Below are positions 7,349 to 28,999 of a stretch of DNA of 38,020 bases, piece after piece. The stretch covers positions 1 through 38,020 of the forward strand of contig JBDRDZ010000037.1 of assembly GCA_043820165.1 (NCBI GenBank), read 5' to 3'. Source of the DNA: Patescibacteria group bacterium (GTDB lineage: Bacteria > Patescibacteriota > Patescibacteriia > UBA9934). Every line of letters starts with the position of its first letter. The first letter of the stretch is position 1. A model generated the notes under the pieces. It saw only the letters and a program-made list of their open reading frames with translations, did no database searches and was not told the origin of the DNA. The position numbers were made by a program, and so were the translations under genes.

Positions 7349-7777
7349 TTATACTTGCTTTGTTTCCTGAAGAATCCTAATGATTTGATCAAGTGGCAGG
7401 GAAGCTAGATTTTTTGGCACTAGCTCTGAAATACTATTTTTTACATCTGTATGTAGCGCTTCAGTAATTTCATTTTTCAGCGCCTCCGGAACACAAAGAA
7501 CGATGACTTTGTAGTCCTGCTTGAGCAGATTTTGTAACCGAGCATTAAGATTCGAATACAGTTCTACTCGACTGTGCCGCTTCATTTCATCGATATCAGG
7601 CGGCCCTGAATTTGGTGTGCCCGAGGCCCGTTCCTCAGGTCTTTGAGTTGTAACGTTGAGTATTTCAAGCTCTTCGACCTCCTTTTCATTAGCTCCAAAA
7701 ATCTTTGCTAGCTCGTTGTTAGTGACGACGATTAGCGTTTTTTTCGGATAGCCAACATAATGTTCCGAGATCTTCAT
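7349..7777 (-). CDS. Hypothetical protein, possibly Host_attach / bacterial eRF1-like (baeRF) family
   Basis: The ORF is open to 7834, but that start would overlap the divergent promoter. M20 (MKISEHYVG, ATG at 7775..7777) is preferred. The pattern TLIVVTNNELAKIF...RHSRVELYSNLNARLQNLLKQDYKVIVLCVPEALKNEI...LVPKNL resembles the Host_attach layout (w.lvad...ari....F...la..L....d.lvlvapp..lg.lr). Assigned from memory only. Confidence 0.45.
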   Translation of the reverse strand: MKISEHYVGYPKKTLIVVTNNELAKIFGANEKEVEELEILNVTTQRPEERASGTPNSGPPDIDEMKRHSRVELYSNLNARLQNLLKQDYKVIVLCVPEALKNEITEALHTDVKNSISELVPKNLASLPLDQIIRILQETKQV

Positions 7778-7858
7778 ACATATTAATACTATCAGACTTG
7801 GATATATTTTGCACGTTATTTCAAGGTTAATCAAAGTTTTGTGATATAATTTGCCTGT

Positions 7859-10414: not shown

Positions 10415-10446
10415 CGCACCCCTCACCGGGTGCGGACATTTTTTTG
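10415..10446 (+). terminator. Intrinsic terminator after the methyltransferase gene
   Basis: ccgcaccc-tcacc-ggggtgcgg type 8-bp GC stem (10415..10435), followed by acattttttt. Confidence 0.75.
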
Positions 10447-10501
10447 TTTAATAAAAAATGGTATAATGCGCCACCGAAGACGTCCTTTCAACGAGGTAAC
10501 A

Positions 10502-11224
10502 ATGTATCCGATGACGACATGGCAAGTAGGCGGTCGTGTCCTTCGGGCCGGCCTCGTAACAACACAACGTGAACGCGAAGCGTGCTATCAACTGAGGTAT
10601 GAGGAATATCACGATCGTTTGGGACAGATCCCACCAAATTCCAGTGGACTCGACATTGACTGGTGCGATGCACACTCAACCCACATGATGGTCGTGCTTG
10701 AGGGCGAGAATAAATTGATTGGTACTTCTCGTAGTATTCCTTGCGACAAGGGCTATCTGCTGGCAGGGAAGTCTGACGAGGGGCCATGCCACTTCTCTGG
10801 GGAGCCATTCAGGTTTCCGTATAAACATCCACAAAATGGTCACTTGCTGCGACCTGAAGAAACTACTGAGATTTCTCGCTGGGTTGGCCGAGCTTTACCG
10901 CTTGGCAATGGAGATTTGGCGCTGGTTTCGATGTTGCTCTTGGAAGCTACGCTGCAGTACTCTCGTAATGCTGGTGTCAAACACTGGGTTTGTGCCATCA
11001 CCGATCGCCCATGGCGCAATGCTTGTGCTGACGGCTGGGGTTTCATTGAGCTCATCCGTCGACCCGATGGTAAAGCACATCCCTATGTCAAGGCTGATGG
11101 TCAGGTCATCCCAGACGCTGAAGTTCGTGTTTGCCTTTTGCCGATTCCTGATCGGCCAGAGAAAGATTATCTATGTCGACGAGTCATCGAGACTAATCGA
11201 TCAACACTCAAGAGGGCCGGGTGA
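10502..11224 (+). CDS. GNAT-fold N-acyltransferase of the LuxI/FeeM/OlsB-like (N-acyl amino acid synthase) type
   Basis: Preferred start is ATG 10502, with GAGG at 10493 and a TGgTATAAT extended -10 at 10459..10467. LRAGLVTTQREREACYQLRYEEYHDRLGQIPPNSSGLDIDWCDAHSTHMMVVLEGENKLIGTSRSIP fits the remembered signature (..a..lRy.vy...lg.......g.e.D.yD..s.H.lv......iGt.R..). A later EISRWV motif is also present. Family call from memory, not searched. Confidence 0.5.
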   Translation: MYPMTTWQVGGRVLRAGLVTTQREREACYQLRYEEYHDRLGQIPPNSSGLDIDWCDAHSTHMMVVLEGENKLIGTSRSIPCDKGYLLAGKSDEGPCHFSGEPFRFPYKHPQNGHLLRPEETTEISRWVGRALPLGNGDLALVSMLLLEATLQYSRNAGVKHWVCAITDRPWRNACADGWGFIELIRRPDGKAHPYVKADGQVIPDAEVRVCLLPIPDRPEKDYLCRRVIETNRSTLKRAG

Positions 11225-11279
11225 GTCCTCTTCTTTTTTTATGGTATACTTTATTGAGAATTAATTGAGAGTAGGAGGT

Positions 11280-13421
11280 ATGCAAACCGTAATTGTCCTG
11301 TTGGACTTATTTACTTTTTTAGTAGGGCTCAGCCTCGGGCTCTATGTTTTTTCACGCAATCCAAAAAGCCGCATTTTCCAGATGTTCATTGTGGCTACTC
11401 TAGGAATGGTTGGTTGGAATTTAACCATTTTTTTGTTGCTGGCTCATATTGGACCAACCTTAATCATTGGTAAACTTTCTTTTTCTTTGGCAACGCTAAT
11501 GATGACCGGTTTTGCGTGGTTCATTTTTATTTTTCCGACCAAGATGCGGGGATGGAAGACGTTCAGTGTTATCTTTGCACTTCTCGGAATCGTTTTTTTT
11601 GCCGTGCCACTCACTCCGTGGTTTGTTACGACAGTTACAGTGGAAAACGGCTTTATCATCGGGGATCTCCATCCGATTATTTTTCCAATCTGGTTTTTTT
11701 CATACGTGATTTCACTATTGGTTGTCTTTTTCTTTTTAGTTGGGCGTACAACCAAGGCGGTTGGAGTAGACAAGTATAGGCTCCGACAGATTTTATTAGG
11801 ATTTTCTTTGTTTCTTTTTCCGATGCTGGTGACAAATTCGTTCTTGCCGATGTTTTTTCAAGATTTTCGATTTAATAACTTAGGACCAGCTTTCTCGATT
11901 TTACTTTTTATCTTCTTAGCTAATGCAATTTTGAGCTATCGACTTTTGGATATCCGTTGGGTATTTGGAAAAAGTATCATCTTTACAATTTTAACAGTTC
12001 TGGTGCTGTGGTTTGTCACCACGATTTATCTCTTTGTTTCTGGATTGTTGACAGACACCTACACATTCTTGGTGACAGCACTTTTGATTTCGATTTCGTT
12101 TGAACCTTTATTTCATTTTCTTGATAAATCAGTTTCAAGGTTAATCAACCTGGGTCGTTATGATGCAAAAAAGGTCACCAATGAAATTTTTGACATTGTT
12201 CGTATGGAGGGAGACTTGTCTCAACTCATGACAAAAATCAATAGTAGTCTTGAAGAATGTCTAGCAGCCACAAAAATTGGTGTCGTCATTTTAAAAACCG
12301 ATACAAACAAAATTGTAGATTCAAATATTAAGGGCTACTCTCAAACGATTTTAAAAAAAGTTGCGGTTTTAGCTACAATTGCTAAGGAAAGAAAGTTTAG
12401 TATCATCGAAGTTGGCGAATTGAAGTGGCAAGGTAGCTTTCATGCCGATCACAAACAGCAAAAAATCGACACCAAACACATGGCTCAACTTAATGAAGTC
12501 GGTGTTGAGGTGGTTATTCCACTTGAAGTCGAGAAACGTTTGGTTGGCTTGATTTTTCTCAATCGAAACCATGTTTCTAAAATTTTGCGCAGTCGCGACA
12601 TTACCTTCTTAGAATTAATTCGTTCAGGTGTTTCGCCAGCGTTTGAAAATGCAGCAAAATTTGAAGAAATAAAGGGTCTATACATGGAGCTGTCACAGCT
12701 CGATAAAGTTAAGTCAGAATTCATTCACGTTGTTTCGCATCGGTTCAGAACACCACTTTCAGCTATTCGCTGGAATTTGGAAAATGCGCTTGAGACTAGT
12801 TCTAAACTTGATCAAGAGACTAAATTAGCCATAAAGGACAGTCACGATCGAACTATTTTTCTTGTTAAAACGCTTAATCGACTTTTTGATACTCTGGCAA
12901 TTGAAAGCGGTAAATTTAAAGTTGAGCTGGCGTCGTTTGGGGCCAGAAAAGCTTTTGCTGAATTGATTGATCGTTTTGCAAAGATGGCTCGGGAGCATAA
13001 ACTAAAGTTTGATGTATCGATTTCGCCAGTCAGTATTATGGGCGATGAAGGGCGTATCGTTGAGGTCTGCGATCATTTACTTTCTAACGCGGTTCAGTAT
13101 AACTCTGAGAGAGGACGAGTATCATTTAGCGTGAAGCGAACCAATGATCATGTTGAGATTCGTGTTTCTGACTCAGGGATTGGCATTCCAAGTAACGAGA
13201 TCGACAAAATTTACGACAAGTTTTTTAGGTGTCGGAATGCCGTGTTGGCGTATGCAGACGGAGCTGGTATTAGTCTTTACATCGCTAGACATATTGTCAA
13301 GCTGCATAAAGGTGACATGACGGTAGAATCGGAAGTCAAGAAAGGTACAACGGTCACGGTCAAACTGCCGGTGCCTTCAGCAAATAAACACCGATCAAGG
13401 AAGGCGGCGAAAAACAAGTAG
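11280..13421 (+). CDS. Sensor histidine kinase with N-terminal 7TM sensor region (orphan, no response regulator nearby)
   Basis: Preferred start is ATG 11280 after AGGAGG. About 7-8 TM helices (HisKA_7TM-like). Central GAF-like region. H-box FIHVVSHRFRTPLSAI, N-box LLSNAVQYN, G1 SDSGIGIP, G2 GAGISLYIARHIV. Confidence 0.88.
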   Translation: MQTVIVLLDLFTFLVGLSLGLYVFSRNPKSRIFQMFIVATLGMVGWNLTIFLLLAHIGPTLIIGKLSFSLATLMMTGFAWFIFIFPTKMRGWKTFSVIFALLGIVFFAVPLTPWFVTTVTVENGFIIGDLHPIIFPIWFFSYVISLLVVFFFLVGRTTKAVGVDKYRLRQILLGFSLFLFPMLVTNSFLPMFFQDFRFNNLGPAFSILLFIFLANAILSYRLLDIRWVFGKSIIFTILTVLVLWFVTTIYLFVSGLLTDTYTFLVTALLISISFEPLFHFLDKSVSRLINLGRYDAKKVTNEIFDIVRMEGDLSQLMTKINSSLEECLAATKIGVVILKTDTNKIVDSNIKGYSQTILKKVAVLATIAKERKFSIIEVGELKWQGSFHADHKQQKIDTKHMAQLNEVGVEVVIPLEVEKRLVGLIFLNRNHVSKILRSRDITFLELIRSGVSPAFENAAKFEEIKGLYMELSQLDKVKSEFIHVVSHRFRTPLSAIRWNLENALETSSKLDQETKLAIKDSHDRTIFLVKTLNRLFDTLAIESGKFKVELASFGARKAFAELIDRFAKMAREHKLKFDVSISPVSIMGDEGRIVEVCDHLLSNAVQYNSERGRVSFSVKRTNDHVEIRVSDSGIGIPSNEIDKIYDKFFRCRNAVLAYADGAGISLYIARHIVKLHKGDMTVESEVKKGTTVTVKLPVPSANKHRSRKAAKNK

Positions 13422-17924: not shown

Positions 17925-17988
17925 TTTGAAAATAAGTATCGGCGACCCAGGACAGATGTCCCAGGCCGCCGATCGCGGTTGAAGGCCC

Positions 17989-19956
17989 CTACGGACCAAA
18001 GCGCCAGCTTCTCTGCTTGGACTTGCAGTGCTCCGGTTGTCTATCAGCCGGCTGCTCCAGACAGCTGTACACCTTGTATTTGGCCGAGATGCTCGTGATG
18101 GTGCCATAGCCACCGCCAGCACAGGCGAAGATGAACAGCAGGGCGACGGTTGCCCAAGTGACCCAGCTGATGGTCCGCAAGATCGCCTTGATCTTGAACT
18201 CTTCGGAAATCCGCCAGGCCCAGTGACGCATCATCTCCGCCAGGAGGCCAACGAGACCACCGATAACCACAGCTGCCATGGAACCAGCGATCCCCATATT
18301 GAAGTAGTAGACGCAGGTGACCAGGATAGTCACGACGAAGCTGATGATCGTCCAGGTGGTGCCCAACATGGCCATACCTTCGACTCGTTTTGGCGTCACG
18401 GCTGGTGTGGTCGATGACGACGAAGGTGCGGTCGCCACTTCCGGAGTACCAGGCAGCAGTTCGCGCATACCCTTGATGACCTTGATGGCCAGTTCGGCCA
18501 CCATTTTGGCCTTCTCCATCTGGAGAACTGAAGCGATGAAGCGCAGTCCTCCTAGTATGGTGTTGTGCATCATGTCGAGCAGGGCGATCGAAAAGCGACT
18601 GATTAGCGTCGCGACCAAGCCAGCCAGGTGGATGATCCAAACGCCGAGCATGAGAGCGGCCCAGAGGCTGAAGTAGAGCTGGCCGTTGTAGACGTACCAG
18701 AACTGGCCAGTGATGCCGAACATCTGCTGTACCGGGTAGTTGACGAACAGCAGGATCAGAGTCGTCCCGGTCAACACCAGATAGCCACCGACGGCCAGCA
18801 CTAGCGAAACCACGAAGATGCTGACCCAGCTGATGATCACCGCTTTGGCAATATTCTTGACCCAGCCCCAAATGCTCGAAGCAAATTCTGGACCCATGGT
18901 CTTGACCTTACTGAGCAGGTCGGCCTTGTAGACCTTCCACTCAACTCGATCAACACTGGTGAACTTATCGTCGAAGGTGTCGAGCACCCCTTTGATGTGG
19001 AACCAGGCGCTGTCCTGCAGCGCTTCATCGTCGCGTCCGACGTGGCGGATCACGGCCAGAAACGGCCGGTATCGCTGCAGCGTCGTGTGGATAAGATCGA
19101 GCTCAACTACGGGCAAGGGCAGATTCTTGCGGTCCGCCTCAGCTACCTGCAGAATGGCTTCGAGCGCGTCGTTGTACTCATCTGGCGTCAGTTCGGGCAG
19201 GAACTCGACGACGTGTGGCTCGGCCAGTAGACCGGCGTGGTGAGCGTCCATGAGCGTGTTGGCTCGTGTTGGCTCGTTGATGATGTCACGAACTCGCAGG
19301 TCAAAGATGCCTTCGAGCACGGCCAGCGACTTGCGCTGTTCCGGAGTGATGACTCCGATCAGGGTCGGCGAGCTATGTGCTTCCGGCTCGGTCTTGATGA
19401 TACCAGCAGCGAATTCTGGTCCGAAGCAAATCGGGCAGATCGGTCGGTGCGGGTAGGTCTTGAACATGGTGTAGATGCTGCCGGTGAAGGCATTGTGCAC
19501 CTTGGCACCAGCACAACCATCCGTCTTGTGGATCGGATCGTACTCGTGATCACCGGTACAAGCCTTGCCAGGCTCGGTGATTTCTTGGTGAACCGGACTG
19601 CCGTCCTTGACTGATTCGAAAAGCTTGTCCTTGAGCTCCTTGCTCGTGAGGTCCTGACGCTTGAGCATGCGCTCAATGCCAGGAGCAATGGCTTTGATGC
19701 CGCCAGTCAGCGGTACTCTAATCAGTCCCGGGATAGCTGGCGTGGCCTTAATGGTCTCGCCAATTGTGGTCAAACCCACCGAGCGGATACTCGGATCCAT
19801 GGCGATCACCGCTTCGGCAATCCACCAGATCACCCCGCCCATCTTTTTGAGCTTGTTGACATCGGTATCGGCAATAGCTGTCTCGACCTTTTCCTGAATT
19901 TCGTGCTCGGCGACACCGCCGAAGATGCTGCCGAAGTTTGGGTTTCCATGGGCCAT
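17989..19956 (-). CDS. Hypothetical 655-aa polytopic membrane protein with Cys/His-motif N-terminal domain (GC-rich island)
   Basis: Long ORF with AAGGAGG 5 nt upstream of the ATG and strong G/C-ending codon bias. About 340-aa soluble N-terminal part containing GKACTGDHEYDPIHKTDGCAGAKVH and HRPICPICFG. Then about 6-7 hydrophobic helices, and a Ser/Thr/Pro linker (TPEVATAPSSSSTTPAVTP). No family recognised. Confidence 0.75.
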   Translation of the reverse strand: MAHGNPNFGSIFGGVAEHEIQEKVETAIADTDVNKLKKMGGVIWWIAEAVIAMDPSIRSVGLTTIGETIKATPAIPGLIRVPLTGGIKAIAPGIERMLKRQDLTSKELKDKLFESVKDGSPVHQEITEPGKACTGDHEYDPIHKTDGCAGAKVHNAFTGSIYTMFKTYPHRPICPICFGPEFAAGIIKTEPEAHSSPTLIGVITPEQRKSLAVLEGIFDLRVRDIINEPTRANTLMDAHHAGLLAEPHVVEFLPELTPDEYNDALEAILQVAEADRKNLPLPVVELDLIHTTLQRYRPFLAVIRHVGRDDEALQDSAWFHIKGVLDTFDDKFTSVDRVEWKVYKADLLSKVKTMGPEFASSIWGWVKNIAKAVIISWVSIFVVSLVLAVGGYLVLTGTTLILLFVNYPVQQMFGITGQFWYVYNGQLYFSLWAALMLGVWIIHLAGLVATLISRFSIALLDMMHNTILGGLRFIASVLQMEKAKMVAELAIKVIKGMRELLPGTPEVATAPSSSSTTPAVTPKRVEGMAMLGTTWTIISFVVTILVTCVYYFNMGIAGSMAAVVIGGLVGLLAEMMRHWAWRISEEFKIKAILRTISWVTWATVALLFIFACAGGGYGTITSISAKYKVYSCLEQPADRQPEHCKSKQRSWRFGP

Positions 19957-20290: not shown

Positions 20291-20390
20291 ATACAGTCAG
20301 TTTTGACCGTGGAAACCTGCTTTCAAAGGCGGGAATTCATGCGTTCTTCACATGAAATAGCGATCCATGAGTCGCTTTGCAGGAGATGCC

Positions 20391-21170
20391 ATGCATTGGT
20401 TTCTTTCTTGGTTCGCCATCCTCGTCGCCACCCCGGCTCTGGCTCAGAACCAGCCTAGCCACAAGAAGGACAGGATCGTCTGCGCCAACGTGCCGCCAGT
20501 TGTCATCACCCCGCGGGGCGGTGGCTTCCTCGGCATTCCCTACATCATGATCGGCAAGAAGGCCTGTCGCGAGGCCGAGGCTGATGTCATTCCCAGCGAG
20601 TCGGCGCCGTCATCTCTGCCCCAGGTGGCCGGGATCGACACCAACAAGCTGAGCTACAACGCCCTCGACCGTGCCCTCGGTCGTGAGCCGCGTGACCGCG
20701 CTGGTCAGATCGATCCGAGCGTCTGCTTCGAGGACGCACCGCCGGTCGGCTGGGAAGCGATTCCTGGTCCGCAGCGCCTGGTCGTGCAAAACAACACCGA
20801 CTCGGCGCTCGAGATTAAGGTTTTCACCCATCGCGGTGAGACCAAAGTCGAGACCGCGGTTGGCTTCGTCGGCTTCCCCGAGTTTGAAGGCTACCATTTG
20901 CCGACGCTCGTCGAAGGTCACGGTAGTGTGTTGCCGCCGCACACCACCTGCTACACCAGGCTGCCGACCAATCGCTCTGGCGTCTGGTCAGTGCAGGCCG
21001 AGCAGCTCGTGCACAGCGGTGACTTCGGCGAGTGGGTTCAGGACGGCGAGTCCTTCACCTATTCCGTGCCGCTCGTCGCCGATGGTTCGCAAAAGACCTA
21101 CGGCGTTCGCGATCGCGGCCAGCGTCAGTCGCTGATCGTCTTTCGCGCCAGCGTCTTCCGTACCCCTTGA
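20391..21170 (+). CDS. Hypothetical secreted protein (GC-rich island)
   Basis: Preferred start is M9 of the listed ORF (ATG 20391), preceded by AGGAG. Signal peptide MHWFLSWFAILVATPALAQ. GC-rich codon usage. No family recognised. Confidence 0.7.
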   Translation: MHWFLSWFAILVATPALAQNQPSHKKDRIVCANVPPVVITPRGGGFLGIPYIMIGKKACREAEADVIPSESAPSSLPQVAGIDTNKLSYNALDRALGREPRDRAGQIDPSVCFEDAPPVGWEAIPGPQRLVVQNNTDSALEIKVFTHRGETKVETAVGFVGFPEFEGYHLPTLVEGHGSVLPPHTTCYTRLPTNRSGVWSVQAEQLVHSGDFGEWVQDGESFTYSVPLVADGSQKTYGVRDRGQRQSLIVFRASVFRTP

Positions 21171-21222: not shown

Positions 21223-21262
21223 AAAAAAAACACAGCTCGTGAAGAGCTGTGTTTTTGTTTTT
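21223..21262. terminator. Bidirectional intrinsic terminator at the island / pilin-array junction
   Basis: aaaaaaaa-cacagctc-gtgaa-gagctgtg-tttttgtttttttt. Perfect 8-bp stem with an A-run and a T-run. Confidence 0.85.
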
Positions 21263-21263
21263 T

Positions 21264-21665
21264 TTATGTAGTAAGTCCAGCGGTTTGCAATGCTGTGATA
21301 ACAAACTGTGAAACTGCGTAAGCACCCAAGGTGATGACCAAACCAATGATTCCGTTGATCATCCACTTTTTCGCTTTCTTCACCTGCTCGTCATTACCAC
21401 CAGCTGTCATCCAGAGAAATCCAGCGTAAAGGATGATGACAAGTAGAATGATACCCAGAAAGCCGAGAACGGCACTGATTAGCGTACCGATTAACTGCGG
21501 TAGAGTTGTTGTACCAAAACCGGCTCCGGTCGGCCCGGCAACAGTTCCGAGGTCTGTGGAAATGTCAATCTGAGCGTGTGCGCTCAAACCCCAAGCTCCA
21601 AGCCCCGCAATGACCATAAGGCCTACCAGGGCGGCGCGCGATAAATAATATTTTGCGTGGCTCAT
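21264..21665 (-). CDS. VirB2/TrbC-like 'T4SS pilin' family small membrane protein, paralog 1
   Basis: 133 aa. Signal peptide, variable segment, then LLVIILYAGFLWMTAGGNDEQVKKAKKWMINGIIGLVITLGAYAVSQFV (two TM helices joined by a basic loop). Confidence 0.75.
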   Translation of the reverse strand: MSHAKYYLSRAALVGLMVIAGLGAWGLSAHAQIDISTDLGTVAGPTGAGFGTTTLPQLIGTLISAVLGFLGIILLVIILYAGFLWMTAGGNDEQVKKAKKWMINGIIGLVITLGAYAVSQFVITALQTAGLTT

Positions 21666-21698
21666 AATTAAAGTTAATTAATTTTGAATATTTATATT

Positions 21699-22061
21699 TT
21701 ATTGAGCTGCTTGAATAGATGATACCACAAAGTCAGCAATGGCGTAAGCGGCAATTGTGATGACTAGTCCTATAGCCGCGTTCATGATCATCTTTTGAGC
21801 TTTTTGCAGTCGATCTTTATTGCCACCCGCAGTCATCCACATGAAACCGGCGTAAACGACCAATAACAGAAAAACAATACCAAGCGTTGACAGCAAAATT
21901 CTGATAACTACACCGATGGTTGTCAACAGATCCATGCCCTCGGCAGTGCCATAGACTTCAGTGCCGACAGTATCGACTTGAGACAAAAAATTCTGGCCGT
22001 GTGCTATTGCCGGCAGTGTCATGACGACAATTATTGCTATTGTCAAGAAAGTTCGTTTCAT
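21699..22061 (-). CDS. VirB2/TrbC-like pilin family protein, paralog 2
   Basis: 120 aa. Signal peptide, then LLLVVYAGFMWMTAGGNKDRLQKAQKMIMNAAIGLVITIAAYAIADFV. Confidence 0.75.
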   Translation of the reverse strand: MKRTFLTIAIIVVMTLPAIAHGQNFLSQVDTVGTEVYGTAEGMDLLTTIGVVIRILLSTLGIVFLLLVVYAGFMWMTAGGNKDRLQKAQKMIMNAAIGLVITIAAYAIADFVVSSIQAAQ

Positions 22062-22063
22062 AT

Positions 22064-22432
22064 TTATCCCGCTAGAGCCAAGAAGATGTACCTGGTTAGG
22101 CCATAAGCCAGCAAAACGATCACTAGACCAAGAAGCGAATTGGTAAGAATGCTTTTTGCTTTCTTAAGTGTTTCTTCTTTGCCACCGCCGGTCATCCAGA
22201 GTAATCCGCCGTAGATGATTAAGATGAGAAAGATGACGCCAACCAAACTAAACAGGGGATTAATGATTCTAGCACCGATATAAGTACCGAAAGCCGTGGT
22301 TGCTTCGTTAGTATCGTAGCCCGCTGTGTTGGCGGTTTCTTTTAAACCGATATCATCAGGAGAAATCTGCGCAAAAACAAAATTCATCGGTAGTAGAATT
22401 GATAGTAGAGTCAGGGCGAACAGTTTTCGCAT
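22064..22432 (-). CDS. VirB2/TrbC-like pilin family protein, paralog 3
   Basis: 122 aa. Signal peptide, then LILIIYGGLLWMTGGGKEETLKKAKSILTNSLLGLVIVLLAYGLTRYI. Confidence 0.75.
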   Translation of the reverse strand: MRKLFALTLLSILLPMNFVFAQISPDDIGLKETANTAGYDTNEATTAFGTYIGARIINPLFSLVGVIFLILIIYGGLLWMTGGGKEETLKKAKSILTNSLLGLVIVLLAYGLTRYIFLALAG

Positions 22433-22480
22433 AGCGGAAGGCCGGGAAAATTCCTAGCCAACCGTCATTCGAGAACCTAA

Positions 22481-22909
22481 TTAGTTTGAGGCTTCCAAAA
22501 GTGAGGAAACAACGAAACTGGTGATGGCGTATGCGGAAAGGATGATTGCCAAACCGATAACACCGGCAATCAAGAGCTTTCTGGCCTCGCCAACCTTCTC
22601 GTCGTTGCCACCAGCGGTCATCCACTTGAAACCGCCCCAGAGAACGATAACCACAGCGACAATTCCGAGAAAGCCGAGCACGATATTGATAATATTACCA
22701 ATAGTGCTTTGCAACTCAGCCGTACCAAGACCGGTCGCCGAAGCGAATGTCGGGTCGATGAGGTCGGCCTCGGTGAGACCATCGGCATCATCTGCAGTTT
22801 CGGCGTCCTCGTCAGCCGCGTAGACAAATGAGGTAGCAGCCACAAATGGCAATGCTAGCATTAGGCCGAGCGTGAGGCTAACGGCGATACGAAGTAATGT
22901 ATTAGACAT
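22481..22909 (-). CDS. VirB2/TrbC-like pilin family protein, paralog 4 (acidic N-terminal segment)
   Basis: 142 aa. Signal peptide, acidic stretch ADEDAETADDADGLTEADLIDP, then VVIVLWGGFKWMTAGGNDEKVGEARKLLIAGVIGLAIILSAYAITSFV. Confidence 0.75.
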   Translation of the reverse strand: MSNTLLRIAVSLTLGLMLALPFVAATSFVYAADEDAETADDADGLTEADLIDPTFASATGLGTAELQSTIGNIINIVLGFLGIVAVVIVLWGGFKWMTAGGNDEKVGEARKLLIAGVIGLAIILSAYAITSFVVSSLLEASN

Positions 22910-23005
22910 ACTTGCAAGTTATGAATTAAGTGATCACTTAGAACACATCCTACAGGCACTTTCGACAAGCGGAACGTAGCTGTGGGATAGGCTCTAAAAT
23001 AATGA

Positions 23006-23359
23006 TTATGGAGTTGGATTCGTTAGAACTTCTGGTGTGAGCAGCGCCTGGAAGATGGTATTGGTAATGACATACGCTGAGGTGATGACTACTATACCAA
23101 GAATCGCCCAAGTCAGCACTCTTTTTCCTTTGTCAATATTTTCCTGTCGGCCGTTGGCTGTCATCCAGATTAATCCGCCGTAAATAAACATGACCAAAGC
23201 GATCGTGCCAGAAATAGCCAGAACACCGGAAATGACGCGACCAATAATAACTCGGACGTCGGTGGTGCCCAGCGGATTCGTGAGCGTCACTTGGGCGGCC
23301 GCGATATATGGCACTAGAGCGCCAAAGAGTAATACTGCCAAAACTCGCAATCGTTTCAT
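23006..23359 (-). CDS. VirB2/TrbC-like pilin family protein, paralog 5
   Basis: 117 aa. Signal peptide, then LVMFIYGGLIWMTANGRQENIDKGKRVLTWAILGIVVITSAYVITNTI. Confidence 0.7.
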   Translation of the reverse strand: MKRLRVLAVLLFGALVPYIAAAQVTLTNPLGTTDVRVIIGRVISGVLAISGTIALVMFIYGGLIWMTANGRQENIDKGKRVLTWAILGIVVITSAYVITNTIFQALLTPEVLTNPTP

Positions 23360-23420
23360 ACGTCAAAATTATAGCACGAAAGCGGAAAAAGACCCTGTTG
23401 ATTGATTTATAATCAAATAT

Positions 23421-24131
23421 TTACGGACCAGGAGTCGGGTTATTGGTTTCAAAAGGCACATCAAAATCACGAGTTTCAGGAACTGGATCTGGGAAAATAC
23501 AGTCGCCAAGGCTGAGCGGGCTTCCGGGCGAGTTAGGGTCAATGCCGTAGTAGTGGCAGATTTCATTACTACTACAAGATACTAACTCTCCGGTCGCAGG
23601 ATCTGTTCGCGCACAATAGCCTGATCGGGGTGAAGAAGGTGCAGTGTCGTCTTGACCTCTAATGACATCTTCGAGATCTCCAGTTGGAATATTACCAGTT
23701 TTGAGTACGGAGATTAGCAGGGTTACGCCGGTGTAGGCAAAAAAGACAATTAAAATTCCAATAACTGCACCGACCATGGTTTTTTTACCTTCATCGATAC
23801 GATTTGGATTGCCAAGCGAGGTCAACCAAGTGACGCCGCCAAAGACGAACATGGCAACAAGAATGCTACCACTGATAGCTAGAATAAAAGTACCGATGTT
23901 GACCATGATCTGCAGAATATTCTCGAGTTCGCAGCGGCCTTGGTCGCGGCAAGCGCATGGCGTTCCTCGACTGGCACAAATACCAGCAAAAATAATGCCT
24001 TGCTCTTGTATTTTAGCAAAGGTAGAAACATCGTTTTGCGCTTGCGCTTGGTGAGGTGTTAGTCCGAAAAAACCTCCAGCCAAGACCAAAACGATTAATG
24101 ATATTTTTAGGCTAAACCTCCAAGAATGCAT
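23421..24131 (-). CDS. Divergent pilin-family paralog 6 with Cys-rich N-terminal segment and about 90-aa C-terminal extension
   Basis: 236 aa. Signal peptide, then AGICASRGTPCACRDQGRCELENI. Degenerate core VAMFVFGGVTWLTSLGNPNRIDEGKKTMVGAVIGILIVFFAYTGV. Then a Cys/Pro-rich tail (SGYCARTDPATGELVSCSSNEICHYYGIDPNSPG...GDCIFPDP). Confidence 0.65.
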   Translation of the reverse strand: MHSWRFSLKISLIVLVLAGGFFGLTPHQAQAQNDVSTFAKIQEQGIIFAGICASRGTPCACRDQGRCELENILQIMVNIGTFILAISGSILVAMFVFGGVTWLTSLGNPNRIDEGKKTMVGAVIGILIVFFAYTGVTLLISVLKTGNIPTGDLEDVIRGQDDTAPSSPRSGYCARTDPATGELVSCSSNEICHYYGIDPNSPGSPLSLGDCIFPDPVPETRDFDVPFETNNPTPGP

Positions 24132-24269: not shown

Positions 24270-25664
24270 TTAGTAAGTTTGTTGGACTCGATTAGCAGCT
24301 AACTCCATCGCATCGGCAGGATCCTCATACCGTGCCTTAAGGTAGTCGTCAATTAAGTTCTTCAGTGCATTTTCCGCGGCCGTGGCGTCTGAACCACGAT
24401 ACCAACTTTCAGCCGTTAATGTTTGAGCTGCAAAGATAGCGACTTGACCGTCATCGAGCTGGCTGTTTACGAGATTGCGCAGGGCTGTTGGTTTGTCAGT
24501 TCTATCTAGGTACGAAGTCACGTTTTCTGCCGAGCTGGCGAACATAAGGAAATCCCAAGCCCAGTTACTGTTTTTTGTATCGTTGGAAACCACCTCTAGC
24601 CAGTAGTTGGCGTAATTGACATCGCGACCACCTTCAATTTGTGGCATGCTTGCGACAGCAAAATTTAGACGCGGTGCTGCGGTGCGCAAGAGGGGGATGT
24701 GATAACTGTAGCCAAAGAAGAAAGCAGTTTGGCCATTGGCGAATGCTTCGAACGAGTTAGGATAATTTTCATTCCAGGTATAGACCTGTTTTGTTGGGTT
24801 GGCGTAGTCGGTGTAAAACTGTAAAGCATTCAGGCCAGGATAAAAGCCTTTGGGGGAGCCTTCCGGAACAGTATTGAAAGCGACGCGCCCACGGGCATCG
24901 GTCATTTGTGTACCGGTTTGCATCATGAGAAGAGACAGAATATCAGTCGATCGCTCGACGTTTTGGCTAGTTCCCAGAGCAGCACCGGATTGAGTAATAT
25001 TGCCATCAATGTCGTAGCTGGTTAGCTGAGGTATTACAGCCTGGAATTCCTCCCAATTTTGTGGTGGCGTCGGAATACCGGCGGCATCAAGCAAATCTCG
25101 GTTGTAAAAAAGAGCCAAACTATCCACGGAAAGCGGGAAGCCGTAAATTCTTGATTGTGCGTCCGATCTTGTGGTCGCTTTGTAACTAAGGACAGCATCT
25201 TTAGCGACTTGCTCGACGTAATCATTTTTTAGCGTTGTAATTGATGGCGTTGGTTTGGTGGTTTCAACAACGACCATTTCTTGACGCAAAGTGCCGCGCG
25301 TCTCCTGATTTTGAATAGTCACAGAAGATGGCATCGGCTCCATTAGATTTTGATATTCGTTCATCCAGGTATTGTGCATGGAGAAGATATCCGGACCGCG
25401 GCCCTCGGCAATAGCGCGCACTAGTTCTTCTTCATATTCATCGTAGCGCAGTTTTCTGTAGTTGATTTTTACATTTGGGTGCAGGGCACGATAGGCGTTA
25501 ATGATATCTCTAAAATCACCACTGTCATCAAAAACACGCCAGTAATTTAGAGTGACCTGTTCTAGTTGTTGACCGCCTCCGCCACCGCCAACGCAGCCTT
25601 GACCAGTGGTTAGAAACAGCGATGCAACAATTAAAAATGTGACTGGTTTTAAAAAGCGCCTCAT
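24270..25664 (-). CDS. ABC-transporter extracellular solute-binding lipoprotein (family 1, sugar-type)
   Basis: 464 aa. Lipobox TTGQGC plus a Gly-rich linker. Length and motifs (LNYWRVFDD..., PDIFSMHNTWM, FFFGYSYH) are typical of SBP_bac_1. No permease or ATPase genes are adjacent. Confidence 0.75.
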   Translation of the reverse strand: MRRFLKPVTFLIVASLFLTTGQGCVGGGGGGQQLEQVTLNYWRVFDDSGDFRDIINAYRALHPNVKINYRKLRYDEYEEELVRAIAEGRGPDIFSMHNTWMNEYQNLMEPMPSSVTIQNQETRGTLRQEMVVVETTKPTPSITTLKNDYVEQVAKDAVLSYKATTRSDAQSRIYGFPLSVDSLALFYNRDLLDAAGIPTPPQNWEEFQAVIPQLTSYDIDGNITQSGAALGTSQNVERSTDILSLLMMQTGTQMTDARGRVAFNTVPEGSPKGFYPGLNALQFYTDYANPTKQVYTWNENYPNSFEAFANGQTAFFFGYSYHIPLLRTAAPRLNFAVASMPQIEGGRDVNYANYWLEVVSNDTKNSNWAWDFLMFASSAENVTSYLDRTDKPTALRNLVNSQLDDGQVAIFAAQTLTAESWYRGSDATAAENALKNLIDDYLKARYEDPADAMELAANRVQQTY

Positions 25665-26530
25665 ACCTTTAAGTTTTTAAGATATTTTTTGAATTCTGTT
25701 TTTGTTTCCGGGTGTTTTAAGCCGAGTTCAACTTGAGCAACGAGCATGCCTAATTTATTGCCACAATTGTACCAAGTCCCATCGAAAGCACAGCCGTACA
25801 AAGCCTGACCTTCCTTGAGGTGTGTTTCAAAAGCATTAGCCAAACGAATTTCCCCGTCCTTACCGGGTTTTTGACTTTCCAGTAATTCGTAAATTCTTGG
25901 AGTGATAATATAGCGACCAATAACAATCAAATTTGATGGCGCTTTGTCGACTGGTGGCTTTTCAACAAATTTCTTCACCTCCCAGGTATTTTTTTCAAGT
26001 TTTGTTCCATCGATCACACCGAAATTTGAAACCATTTTTTTCGGAACCTCGTAGAGTGCGACAACAGGATCTCTATGTTTTTCATAAACGTTAATCAACT
26101 GTTTGATCGCCGGTACTTTGCCACCGATAATATCGTCACCAAATAGGACAGCGACCGGTTCATCACGGTCAATGAAAGGTAGTGCTGATAAAATTGCGTG
26201 TCCGTCACCGAGTGGTTTGGCCTGGCGAACGAAACCGAATTTTGCGAGCTTGCCAATTGCGGAAACTGTCTTGAGTTCCTCAAATTTTTTCCTTTGTTCA
26301 AGTCGGTATTCTAATTCGAAGTTACGATCAAAATGATCTTCGATTGCCCGCTTGCCAATCGAGGTCACAAAAATGATTTCCTCGATGCCGGCAGCAACAG
26401 CCTCCTCAACAATGTATTGGACCACCGGTTTATCAACTACCGGAATCATTTCTTTAGGCTGAGCTTTAGCAGCTGGCAGGAAGCGCGTGCCCATACCGGC
26501 CACCGGAATAATAGCTTTTCTGATTTTCAT
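25661..26530 (-). CDS. galU: UTP-glucose-1-phosphate uridylyltransferase
   Basis: 289 aa. KAIIPVAGMGTRFLPAAKAQPKEMIPVVDKPVVQYIVEEA, FVRQAKPLGDGHA, VEKP motif. 4-nt overlap with the downstream SBP gene. Confidence 0.92.
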   Translation of the reverse strand: MKIRKAIIPVAGMGTRFLPAAKAQPKEMIPVVDKPVVQYIVEEAVAAGIEEIIFVTSIGKRAIEDHFDRNFELEYRLEQRKKFEELKTVSAIGKLAKFGFVRQAKPLGDGHAILSALPFIDRDEPVAVLFGDDIIGGKVPAIKQLINVYEKHRDPVVALYEVPKKMVSNFGVIDGTKLEKNTWEVKKFVEKPPVDKAPSNLIVIGRYIITPRIYELLESQKPGKDGEIRLANAFETHLKEGQALYGCAFDGTWYNCGNKLGMLVAQVELGLKHPETKTEFKKYLKNLKV

Positions 26531-26667
26531 AATTATTCTTATGAATTCTACTGATTCAGTATATCATTTTTTTAGCGCTGATGTTAGGGGTTAATTTTTT
26601 CAAGTATTGATTTTTAAGTGGGCTGGTGATACATTGATATTTGCAAAATTAATTCGTTTTTTAGTCT

Positions 26668-27516: not shown

Positions 27517-27768
27517 ATGGCGGTGTATTCGGGTCGTGATTTTATCAAAAAGGGCTTTTGAATTTATTAACTTTCTTGTCTATTATATCTACCGATTTAG
27601 AAAAGCCAATATTTCTTAACCGAAAAAATATAATTTGTGTAACATCCAAAATATTGTTAATTTGGCAGCAGAAATTTGTTTAATTTTTTAAAATTTTTTG
27701 GCAATTTATTTTAGATCGAGCGTAATTTATGTAAAATATAAACAGTTTGATAATTTAACCATGACAAT

Positions 27769-28017
27769 ATGGAAAAACAAGAAGGTGCTTTTAACCCACA
27801 AGAACACACACGTTGGGCAAAACAGCGGGCGCTTGAAATATTAAAACAAGGGGATCTCATGCAAGCAATCGATTCAATGGTAAGTGATTTACGTAAAGAT
27901 CCTACACGTCCGCCTGAACAGGTGAGAATGCTTACTATGATGGGCATGATTACAAGAAATGATCCTGCCTTAGATGAAAAGAAGGTAAGAGAGTTTATTG
28001 AAGGATTTGCAGAATAA
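27769..28017 (+). CDS. Hypothetical small helical protein (82 aa)
   Basis: Charged, helix-like composition. Followed by a clean terminator at 28065..28088, which favours this strand over the antisense 131-aa ORF. No SD seen and no family recognised. Confidence 0.45.
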   Translation: MEKQEGAFNPQEHTRWAKQRALEILKQGDLMQAIDSMVSDLRKDPTRPPEQVRMLTMMGMITRNDPALDEKKVREFIEGFAE

Positions 28018-28064
28018 ATTGCCAAAATTAATACAAGAGGTATATTGTTGACTACATCGAACAT

Positions 28065-28088
28065 AAAATCGCCCCTGAGGCGATTTTT
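28065..28088 (+). terminator. Intrinsic terminator after the 82-aa ORF
   Basis: aaaatcgcc-cctga-ggcgatttt(t). Confidence 0.75.
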
Positions 28089-28100
28089 GATTACTAGATA

Positions 28101-28665
28101 AACCACCAGCTTTAGCTGGTGAGTGCGTTTAAAGGCGAAGCCCTTGGGTTATAATAAAATCACCACACACGGAAAGGGGGTGATTTTATTATGTCCAATC
28201 GTAGGCTGTACTCATTAAATCATAGCACCTACGACTGTCAGTACCATATCGTCTGGATAACCAAGTGGCGAGGAAAGGTACTTACAGATAAGTATATCAA
28301 ATCTGAGCTAAAATCAATGTTTCGTCGTATTGCAGACTGGAAAGGCCTGACAATTTTGTCATGGCATGTCGGAGACGAACATGTACACATCATTCTCACG
28401 ATCCCGCCCAAGTATTCTGTTGCCTATGTCATCCAAGTCCTCAAAGGAAAGACATCCTCATGGATTAAGAAAAAGACTAAGAAACTTCCGAAGGGAAGTT
28501 TGTGGGTGCGAGGATATTTTGTCTCAACGATCGGTCTTGATGAAGCGATGGTTAGAAACTACGTTGACACACAACACGTCAACCATCAAGAAATGCCAAA
28601 ACTACCAATTTAACAGTCAGCAAGGCTGACAAACCGAAACCACCGGCGTTTAAGCCGGTGGTTGT
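28101..28665 (+). mobile_element. IS200-type (IS200/IS605 family, tnpA-only) insertion sequence. Boundaries approximate.
   Basis: Y1 HUH transposase gene flanked by related subterminal hairpins: CACCAGC-ttta-GCTGGTG (28104..28121) and AACCACCGGC-gtttaa-GCCGGTGGTT (28638..28663). Internal TATAAT at 28150..28155. No tnpB. Confidence 0.7.
28191..28613 (+). CDS. tnpA: IS200/IS605-family Y1 (HUH) transposase TnpA
   Basis: 140 aa. YHIVWITKWRGKVL. HUH motif in DEHVHIILTIPPKYSVAYVIQVLKGKTS. Catalytic-Tyr region LWVRGYFVSTIGLDEAMVRNYV. Confidence 0.9.
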   Translation: MSNRRLYSLNHSTYDCQYHIVWITKWRGKVLTDKYIKSELKSMFRRIADWKGLTILSWHVGDEHVHIILTIPPKYSVAYVIQVLKGKTSSWIKKKTKKLPKGSLWVRGYFVSTIGLDEAMVRNYVDTQHVNHQEMPKLPI

Positions 28666-28909: not shown

Positions 28910-28999
28910 TGGCGGAGAGGGAGGGATTCGAACCCTCGAGACCCTTTCAGGTCTACAGCTTTTCGAGAGCTGCGCTTTCGACCACTCAGCCACCTCTCC
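28910..28999 (-). tRNA. tRNA-Ser (anticodon CGA), long variable arm, CCA encoded
   Basis: Reverse complement is GGAGAGGTGGCTGAGTGGTCGAAAGCGCAGCTCTCGAAAAGCTGTAGACCTGAAAGGGTCTCGAGGGTTCGAATCCCTCCCTCTCCGCCA. Anticodon stem CAGCT/AGCTG with loop CTCGAAA. T-arm GAGGG-TTCGAAT-CCCTC. Confidence 0.93.

Follow-up and report, generated by a model that had tools for sequence, protein, structure and literature searches.

Six tandem VirB2-like pilin genes in a Patescibacteria group bacterium: ancient, position-ordered paralogs at the distal end of a predicted galU–solute-binding lipoprotein operon

We analyzed a stretch of 38,020 bp from a Patescibacteria group bacterium (contig JBDRDZ010000037.1 of assembly GCA_043820165.1), which is the entire contig and is called the window in the following. 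It carries six consecutive genes for small, predicted pilins of the VirB2/TrbC type, designated P1 to P6, which are read in the order P6, P5, P4, P3, P2, P1 (Table 1). The gene of a solute-binding protein (SBP) precedes P6 by 138 nt, and the gaps from there down to P1 amount to 61, 96, 48, 2 and 33 nt. A preliminary description of this DNA had named six consecutive same-strand genes; open reading frames (ORFs) with the same ends and lengths were recovered, all on the minus strand, and the six loop peptides quoted there agree letter by letter with the translations.

Table 1. Features of the pilin locus and of the gene pair downstream of it
Feature	Position	Strand	Remarks
Pilin paralog 6 (P6)	23421-24131	minus	236 aa; transcribed first; PF18895 35.2 bits
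Pilin paralog 5 (P5)	23006-23359	minus	117 aa; second in transcription; PF18895 38.3 bits, TrbC 22 bits
Pilin paralog 4 (P4)	22481-22909	minus	142 aa; third; acidic exposed segment; most VirB2-like; PF18895 42.7 bits
Pilin paralog 3 (P3)	22064-22432	minus	122 aa; fourth; PF18895 36.6 bits
Pilin paralog 2 (P2)	21699-22061	minus	120 aa; fifth; PF18895 24.0 bits
Pilin paralog 1 (P1)	21264-21665	minus	133 aa; last; Gly/Thr-rich exposed segment; PF18895 40.9 bits
Sugar-type solute-binding lipoprotein (SBP_bac_1)	24270-25664	minus	464 aa; Pfam SBP_bac_1 86 bits
galU (UTP-glucose-1-phosphate uridylyltransferase)	25661-26530	minus	TIGR01099 329.6 bits (cut-off 326.8); Pfam NTP_transferase
Candidate sigma-70-like promoter	26558-26587	minus	upstream of galU, possible operon start; 9/12 consensus matches plus TG extension
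Bidirectional intrinsic terminator	21226-21256	both	13-bp stem, T-runs on both strands; 8 nt past P1 stop
Gene of 655-aa protein	17989-19956	minus	hydrophilic N-domain, 5-6 C-terminal transmembrane helices, invariant H143/C174/C177
Gene of 267-aa secreted protein	20367-21170	plus	convergent to array

By hydropathy, each of the six proteins has an N-terminal signal-type hydrophobic segment followed by two more hydrophobic helices. This agrees with the shared architecture of signal peptide, variable segment and hairpin proposed in the preliminary description. An AlphaFold2 (AF2) model of P4, computed from 47 sequences with a mean predicted local distance difference test score (pLDDT) of 80.6, places a signal-peptide helix at residues 2-33 and a hairpin of helices 66-98 and 103-141 with pLDDT >90, while the exposed segment of ~30 residues is disordered. 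The signal peptides of P1-P6 are of the AxA↓Q type cleaved by signal peptidase I, with such a site in 5/6 paralogs, and not of the class III prepilin-peptidase type. Likewise, the N_methyl motif of type IV pilins (PF07963) had no match in P1-P6 even at E ≤ 1. In composition, too, the proteins are as previously described, P1 being rich in Gly and Thr, P4 acidic and P6 rich in Cys, with 8 Cys residues against 0 in the other five paralogs.

Mean pairwise identity of P1-P6 is 32%, with a maximum of 44%. Divergence, formerly described as concentrated in the exposed part, is so only moderately, with 26% identity in the N-terminal part and 35% in the hairpin core. In this core, P1 shares 55% with P4, the closest pair of the array, and P2 shares 49% with P4. 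At the sequence level the paralogy of the six genes is far beyond chance, since PF18895 E-values range from 4e-5 to 6e-11 for all six and a family of 84-nt DNA repeats, 61-70% identical, spans their loop-coding core. Comparison of the array DNA revealed no long near-identical or gene-conversion-like tracts among the paralogs.

The Pfam gathering threshold of PF18895 (T4SS_pilin; 26.6 bits) was passed by P1, P3, P4, P5 and P6 with 35-43 bits, and P2 was just under it at 24.0. For PF04956 (TrbC/VirB2; cut-off 27.9 bits), P4 passed with 29.8 bits, P5 (22) and P6 (15.5) stayed below, and P1-P3 were not reported. The nearest NCBIfam model was NF045849, the Mbov_0395 family of a Mycoplasma integrative and conjugative element (ICE). 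P4 reached 36.7 bits with this model, below the equivalog cut-off of 40, and the model was matched at E ≤ 1e-3, at best 7e-14, by 47/47 sequences in an alignment of P4 orthologs and paralogs that included four other window paralogs; P2 matched it at E ≤ 1e-3 as well. Judged by these scores, NF045849 is a related family of which the array proteins would not be members. NCBI lists P4 under the protein name 'pilin', and a homolog search returned 1,909 homologs of it at E ≤ 1e-5. Alignment of a P4-ortholog profile with Agrobacterium tumefaciens VirB2, whose query sequence was verified against PDB 8cue/8exh, gave a weak match (hhalign E = 0.0012, probability 19%). It was nevertheless collinear, with the AxA↓Q cleavage site including Gln at +1, helix 1, the W-M motif and helix 2 in register. 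The profile matches support the assignment of P1-P6 as VirB2/TrbC-superfamily prepilins of the Patescibacteria branch PF18895. The family had been named correctly in the preliminary description: the HMM (hidden Markov model) check gave PF18895 for 5/6 and PF04956 for P4. Of the HMM and structural similarity on which that description had staked its assignment, the former was found; the structural search did not discriminate (see below).

Comparison with relatives showed the six paralogs to be old, with orthologs at the same array positions in other species. Species-representative genomes were scanned with a three-paralog alignment as the seed, the six-paralog one being too divergent, and this gave at least 577 relatives; the comparisons below use the best 80 loci. 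These belong to Uhrbacteria, Magasanikbacteria and unclassified Patescibacteria metagenome-assembled genomes (MAGs). Table S1 of Quinonero-Coronel et al. 2025 (PMC12102498) puts Uhrbacteria and Magasanikbacteria taxa in the GTDB class ABY1, and we take the host of the array to be an ABY1-type, Uhrbacteria- or Magasanikbacteria-like bacterium. Array size, which the preliminary description had suggested comparing, was at least two pilin ORFs in 77/80 loci, most frequently 5-6, over a range of 1-13. Each window pilin is most similar to the same-position genes of other genomes, with 95-154 bits, and its own-array paralogs reach at most 92 bits. For all loci together, the best match lay in another genome for 445/491 pilins, and only 2/1,430 within-array pairs reached 70% identity.

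Reciprocal best hits clustered by array position. For P6, all 14 top matches were position-1 genes of other arrays, 33/58 reciprocal best hits of P5 were position-2 genes, and those of P3 centred on position 4. Position-1 pilins share a conserved four-Cys motif, IC..CxCRDxGxC, ahead of helix 1, and their C-terminal tail, TGxxP..IEDxI..TQ, is conserved as well; by these signatures the position-1 pilin is a distinct subfamily. A second, C-terminal Cys-rich extension of P6 is lineage-specific. Among 43 P4 orthologs, conservation was 0.95 in the loop, 0.81 in the hairpin and 0.60 in the exposed segment, which over the same 43 sequences keeps an F..TGLG..DL motif, a point that also qualifies the earlier emphasis on divergence of the exposed part. 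The best orthologs of the window pilins are at most 71% identical; together with ~32% amino acid identity between the paralogs, this means that synonymous sites are saturated. Since the paralogs are ancient with conserved positions, fixed specialised subunits are favoured over a rapidly varying cassette. Between the two options of the preliminary description, a heteromeric or a variable filament, positional orthology hence favours the former; the variable reading is not favoured.

Exceptions to ancient paralogy were seen at three loci (numbered in our overall set of L001-L160). Genes 2-3 of L035 are a rare recent duplication with 90% identity. Apparent fused double-pilin ORFs occur at L002:10780-11451 and L078:10985-11773; they encode 223 and 262 aa and reach about double the HMM score.

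Magasanikbacteria-type loci with 8-13 pilins have further recurrent genes upstream on the same strand, namely one for an N_methyl type IV pilin-like protein (L032:3147-3770) and one for a conserved ~460-aa protein with a single transmembrane segment (e.g. L054:1542-2933). This hints at co-location of type IV pilus (T4P)-like and VirB2-like pilin genes in large-array loci. Many MAG records with these arrays and this synteny (L002, L005, L007-L009, L011 and others) are titled 'uncultured Gammaproteobacteria bacterium', which looks like placeholder or mislabelled taxonomy.

The array is also, as predicted from sequence, the distal part of a conserved galU–SBP–pilin operon. galU is the first gene of the unit and overlaps the start of the SBP gene by 4 nt. 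No minus-strand terminator-like sites were found in the intergenic gaps from galU to P1, and apart from the terminator after P1, this strand of the unit has just two weak ones, within the coding sequence of P6. The terminator 21226-21256 ends both the pilin operon and the convergent gene of the 267-aa protein. Promoter-like sites are no more frequent in the region than in shuffled sequence, which weakens the candidate upstream of galU. P1-P6 thus seem to be transcribed as a single unit, in which no switch is obvious. The closest PDB relatives of the SBP are solute-binding proteins of sugar ATP-binding cassette (ABC) transporters, and a lipobox-like (T/S)G(A/Q/L)GC motif is present in 60/61 SBP orthologs. 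A recurrent ABC permease was absent within 6 kb of the SBP gene across 61 loci, and a Pfam scan of all window ORFs of at least 110 aa found no ABC transporter in the window. The SBP is hence an apparent orphan, although partner genes may be encoded elsewhere in the genome.

Linkage of these genes was seen from both sides. Among pilin-seeded loci with room for it, 57/68 have the SBP gene immediately ahead of the array, often at a distance of ≤ 30 nt. An independent, SBP-seeded scan on metagenome contigs found same-strand pilins downstream in 65/68 loci with room, with a modal count of 5. A galU homolog is directly upstream of the SBP gene in 58/63 SBP-seeded loci and is present in 54/81 pilin-seeded loci. 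In some close relatives (L005, L008, L011, L028) the galU–SBP–pilin linkage is broken or rearranged. Because of these relatives, and because the pilin-seeded and SBP-seeded samples are both dominated by one lineage, inherited synteny is not fully separable from functional coupling. The linkage is absent from the 2025 survey (PMC12102498), and we found no report of it in the literature. New here are the positional orthology of the paralogs and the galU–SBP–pilin linkage.

Pilin arrays as such are an already described kind, and the locus adds no new kind of element. Wang et al. 2023 (Cell; PMC10633639) described a predicted pilin series inside an essential type IV secretion system (T4SS) cluster of Southlakia epibionticum, with essentiality shown by transposon sequencing (PMC10633639), and a 2025 review (PMC12857230) highlighted the six essential VirB2-like pilins of this organism and speculated about a pilus through which the cells would take up material from the host. 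With PF04956 and PF18895, Quinonero-Coronel et al. 2025 (PMC12102498) listed 383 assemblies with 441 arrays in all, of 2-11 pilin genes each and with a mean identity of 25% and a maximum of 54%. They proposed that arrays adapt to different host strains, in analogy with the VirB2 paralogs of Bartonella and Anaplasma. The preliminary description called this pilin family poorly studied; such arrays have in fact been studied, with essentiality in Southlakia (PMC10633639) and a catalogue across the phylum (PMC12102498). To regard their function as experimentally unknown is, given the Southlakia result, partly outdated.

The present array shares with the published Patescibacteria arrays (PMC12102498) the families PF18895/PF04956, a tandem same-strand arrangement and a chromosomal place near the origin. 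It also agrees with their definition, at least two pilin genes in tandem or one non-pilin gene apart with low mutual identity, at gaps of 2-96 nt and 32% mean and 44% maximum identity against the published 25% and 54%. The published arrays are mostly from Microgenomatia and Saccharimonadia and often beside virB4, whereas ours is of ABY1 type, away from virB4 and within a galU–SBP lipoprotein–pilin operon. Table S3 of PMC12102498 gives each of the ABY1 genomes looked up there 1-3 pilin genes, compared with 4-13 per locus in this lineage here. Likened by its published description, Ca. Southlakia epibionticum ML1 (SEML1_0006-0019) is also a monoderm Patescibacterium with six sequence-divergent, structurally similar VirB2-like pilins. 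Its pilin genes form part of the T4SS cluster, and here no such cluster adjoins.

With the VirB2/TrbC/TraA pilins of diderms (A. tumefaciens T-pilus, PDB 8cue/8exh), the array proteins have in common the AxA↓Q cleavage site (predicted here), the two-helix hairpin, the W-M motif that closes helix 1 and, for P4, a score above the TrbC cut-off. They differ in a monoderm host, a longer charged inter-helix loop (TAGGNDEKVxEAKK), a longer, variable exposed N-terminal segment and the lack of an adjacent virB operon. Pilins of this VirB2-like kind are, to our knowledge, peculiar to Patescibacteria among monoderm T4SSs. Mbov_0395/MMCAP2_0565 of Mycoplasma ICEs is likewise a small hairpin protein, from a monoderm MPF-FATA-type conjugation system; its gene occurs once, on a mobile ICE, in contrast to the chromosomal six-gene array. 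The T4SSs of Bartonella and Anaplasma, too, have several diverged virB2 copies in tandem. These are read as antigenic or host-range variants in animal pathogens. The old paralogs of the present array, by contrast, have orthologs at set positions, an argument for fixed roles rather than variants of that sort.

The secretion machinery itself was sought in the visible surroundings, that is, 21.2 kb on one side of the array and 13.9 kb on the other. The preliminary description had stated at least 15 kb without machinery on each side; the lack of VirB4, VirB6 and VirD4 domains held, and the distance did not, as DNA reaches just 13.9 kb on one side. In the flanks of related arrays, large Walker-A ORFs were considered as hidden VirB4/VirD4 and rejected, being ABC transporters, FtsH, UvrA, MoxR and DnaA. 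Recurrent neighbour families of the 80 arrays are more pilins, the T4P-like N_methyl protein, GT2, NYN, YchF and PNPase.

In the published data, VirB4 occurs in 2,417/3,035 assemblies, and pilin genes are near virB4 in 1,135/1,948 assemblies having both and away from it in 813 (PMC12102498). Table S3 of that work lists VirB4-TrsD-VirB3 clusters in three ABY1 genomes, Magasanikbacteria GWC2_37_14 and GWA2_37_8 and Uhrbacteria GWC2_40_450; their VirB2 hits are hundreds of genes off and flagged 'VirB4 proximity: No' (PMC12102498). Because ABY1 genomes keep VirB4-TrsD-VirB3 far from their VirB2 genes, the array is not shown to be orphan. The missing machinery is normal for the lineage and limited by the extent of the contig, and it does not speak for an orphan system. 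The window, chromosomal and origin-adjacent, has genes for dnaA, dnaN, PBP1, a histidine kinase, IscS/NifU, PGI, Wzy and polysaccharide synthesis, SpoIID, a D-Ala-D-Ala carboxypeptidase and RuvB. A location of T4SS genes close to dnaA is the published tendency (PMC12102498), and the array is ~20 kb from this gene.

With moderate confidence, we favour the reading that P1-P6 are Sec-exported pilins assembled by a distant T4SS into a heteromeric pilus. After Sec export, signal peptidase I would cleave at AxA↓Q, leaving mature proteins of 85-200 aa. These would sit in the cytoplasmic membrane as helical hairpins with N- and C-termini outside and the short basic loop (..GGN-DE-K..KKAKK) facing the cytoplasm. 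A VirB4-powered T4SS of monoderm, MPF-FATA-like type, encoded elsewhere in the genome, may then extract the subunits and polymerise them into a heteromeric surface filament or conduit. The six paralogs probably play distinct structural roles and are unlikely to be interchangeable variants, as orthologs and array position are conserved for each of them. One or more of them could be shaft subunits and others minor subunits, with the Cys-motif pilin of the first position as a candidate tip or base subunit. Predicted co-transcription with a sugar-binding lipoprotein and GalU suggests a cell-surface organelle whose action is tied to carbohydrate capture (by the SBP) or glycosylation (with UDP-glucose from GalU), which fits the epibiotic, host-dependent lifestyle of the phylum.

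Several results weigh against this assembly by a distant T4SS. No VirB4, VirB6, VirD4 or TrbL domain was found by Pfam in ORFs of at least 110 aa on the 38,020-bp contig, and no T4SS gene (virB4, virB6, virB3 or type IV coupling protein) lies within the 10-kb flanks of the 80 related arrays. Since none is nearby, coupling to a T4SS rests on homology and on other lineages. Linkage to the SBP and GalU instead of to a motor would also fit a T4SS-independent role. On the structural side, Foldseek with the AF2 model of P4 gave no match in the PDB at E ≤ 1e-3, and thus no significant VirB2/TraA pilin, though a bare hairpin is too simple a fold to discriminate here; a profile search of PDB sequences found no pilin, and the hhalign probability against VirB2 was just the 19% given above. 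Finally, no VirB2-type pilus has yet been demonstrated on any Patescibacterium (PMC12857230), and in this respect the earlier statement on function still stands.

As an alternative, the hairpins and the co-transcribed SBP might form their own membrane or surface complex for nutrient capture or adhesion, with the SBP docking on oligomerised hairpins that replace an ABC permease and with VirB2 as ancestry only. Such a T4SS-independent surface module would explain the strong SBP–pilin linkage in both directions (57/68 and 65/68), an SBP without recurrent permease within 6 kb, the lack of ABC transporters in the window and the absence of T4SS genes near any of the 80 arrays. We nevertheless regard it as unlikely. 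All family evidence indicates conjugation-type pilins, the same family is found inside T4SS clusters, and is essential there, in other Patescibacteria classes (PMC12102498, PMC10633639), ABY1 genomes do encode VirB4-TrsD-VirB3 (PMC12102498), and the adjacency, rearranged in L005, L008, L011 and L028, can be inherited synteny. Another possibility is that the pilins are mere two-helix membrane proteins, regulatory or holin-like, misnamed 'pilin' by Pfam and NCBI. The top Foldseek matches of the P4 model are indeed generic helical hairpins such as ATP-synthase subunit c, the Pfam name stems from annotation and not from experiment, and the hhalign probability with VirB2 is low. On the other hand, two independent curated models of experimentally defined conjugation systems match (TrbC/VirB2 for P4 and NF045849 for 47/47 sequences), the signal peptide, Gln at +1 and W-M hairpin are in register with VirB2, and in other classes the genes are embedded in T4SS clusters (PMC12102498, PMC10633639). 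A misnomer hence appears very improbable to us.

That the six genes are interchangeable major pilins for surface variation or host-strain matching is the published hypothesis for such arrays (PMC12102498). Exposed N-terminal segments of strongly different composition and an array size of 1-13 across relatives would suit it. A variation cassette, however, is hard to reconcile with paralogs older than the species, of which 445/491 have their best match in another genome with positions kept, or with only 2 recent duplicates among 1,430 within-array pairs. Gene-conversion-like identical tracts are lacking, the exposed-segment motif of P4 is kept over 43 orthologs, and the six genes seem to form a single transcription unit that lacks an obvious switch. 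We hence think it quite unlikely for this lineage.

Along with the favoured T4SS-assembled heteromeric pilus, we may speculate, with low confidence, that the VirB2-like pilins of ABY1 became a fixed six-subunit heteromeric organelle that is coupled to the SBP and GalU and no longer an accessory of a T4SS cluster. Such an organelle might be a carbohydrate-capture, adhesion or glycosylated filament feeding on the host surface, with or without a distant VirB4. If true, this would for the first time give a concrete molecular starting point to the proposal of a Patescibacteria T4SS pilus used in uptake rather than secretion. Quite apart from this speculation, the age and conserved order of the paralogs make them probable specialised components of a single structure rather than alternative antigens. 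Their linkage to the SBP gene and galU, almost constant in one large lineage in which they never adjoin the motor genes, points to a testable connection of the putative pilus with carbohydrate capture or glycosylation.

Downstream of the array lies a gene pair of high GC content, the genes of the 655-aa and the 267-aa protein. Their GC is 0.57-0.63 and their third-position GC (GC3) 0.73-0.76, against a GC3 of 0.37-0.56 in neighbouring genes, and the edges of the block, near 17950 and 21200, are sharp. The block was considered as a one-off horizontal insertion, an idea that we rejected, as homologs at the same position in several relatives (L003, L005, L008, L012, L013) are equally GC-rich, with 0.555-0.64 versus 0.43-0.50. 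Homologs of the pair are just 21-34% identical over BLAST-aligned segments. The 655-aa family comprises 15 representative clusters among 1.84 billion proteins in an exhaustive HMMER search, whereas a word-indexed search returned the query alone. This protein had no Pfam match even at E ≤ 1, and its AF2 model, of mediocre quality (pLDDT 64.7), had no Foldseek match. A role as a VirB6-like component found no support from Pfam, HMMER or Foldseek, and nothing links the pair to a T4SS.

A few further features of the window may be mentioned. The contig begins with dnaA-dnaN (173-2699), in agreement with the origin-proximal T4SS genes of Patescibacteria (PMC12102498); the DnaA ORF of the window (375 aa) is without a DnaA_N domain, unlike the DnaA of L078. 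A Y1 transposase of the insertion sequence type IS200/IS605 (PF01797, 112 bits) is encoded at 28191-28613 on the plus strand beside a tRNA-Ser gene at 28910-28999 on the minus strand, and an ORF for a 131-aa protein with two transmembrane segments (27711-28106) adjoins this region. A 161-aa protein (7349-7834, minus) matches baeRF_family12 and 'Host_attach' (protein required for attachment to host cells), a name that may be relevant to an epibiont, though the family is release-factor-like. Finally, at 10430-13421 a gene for a GNAT/FeeM-like N-acyl amino acid synthase lies immediately upstream of that of a 718-aa histidine kinase, and the two could be a signalling pair.

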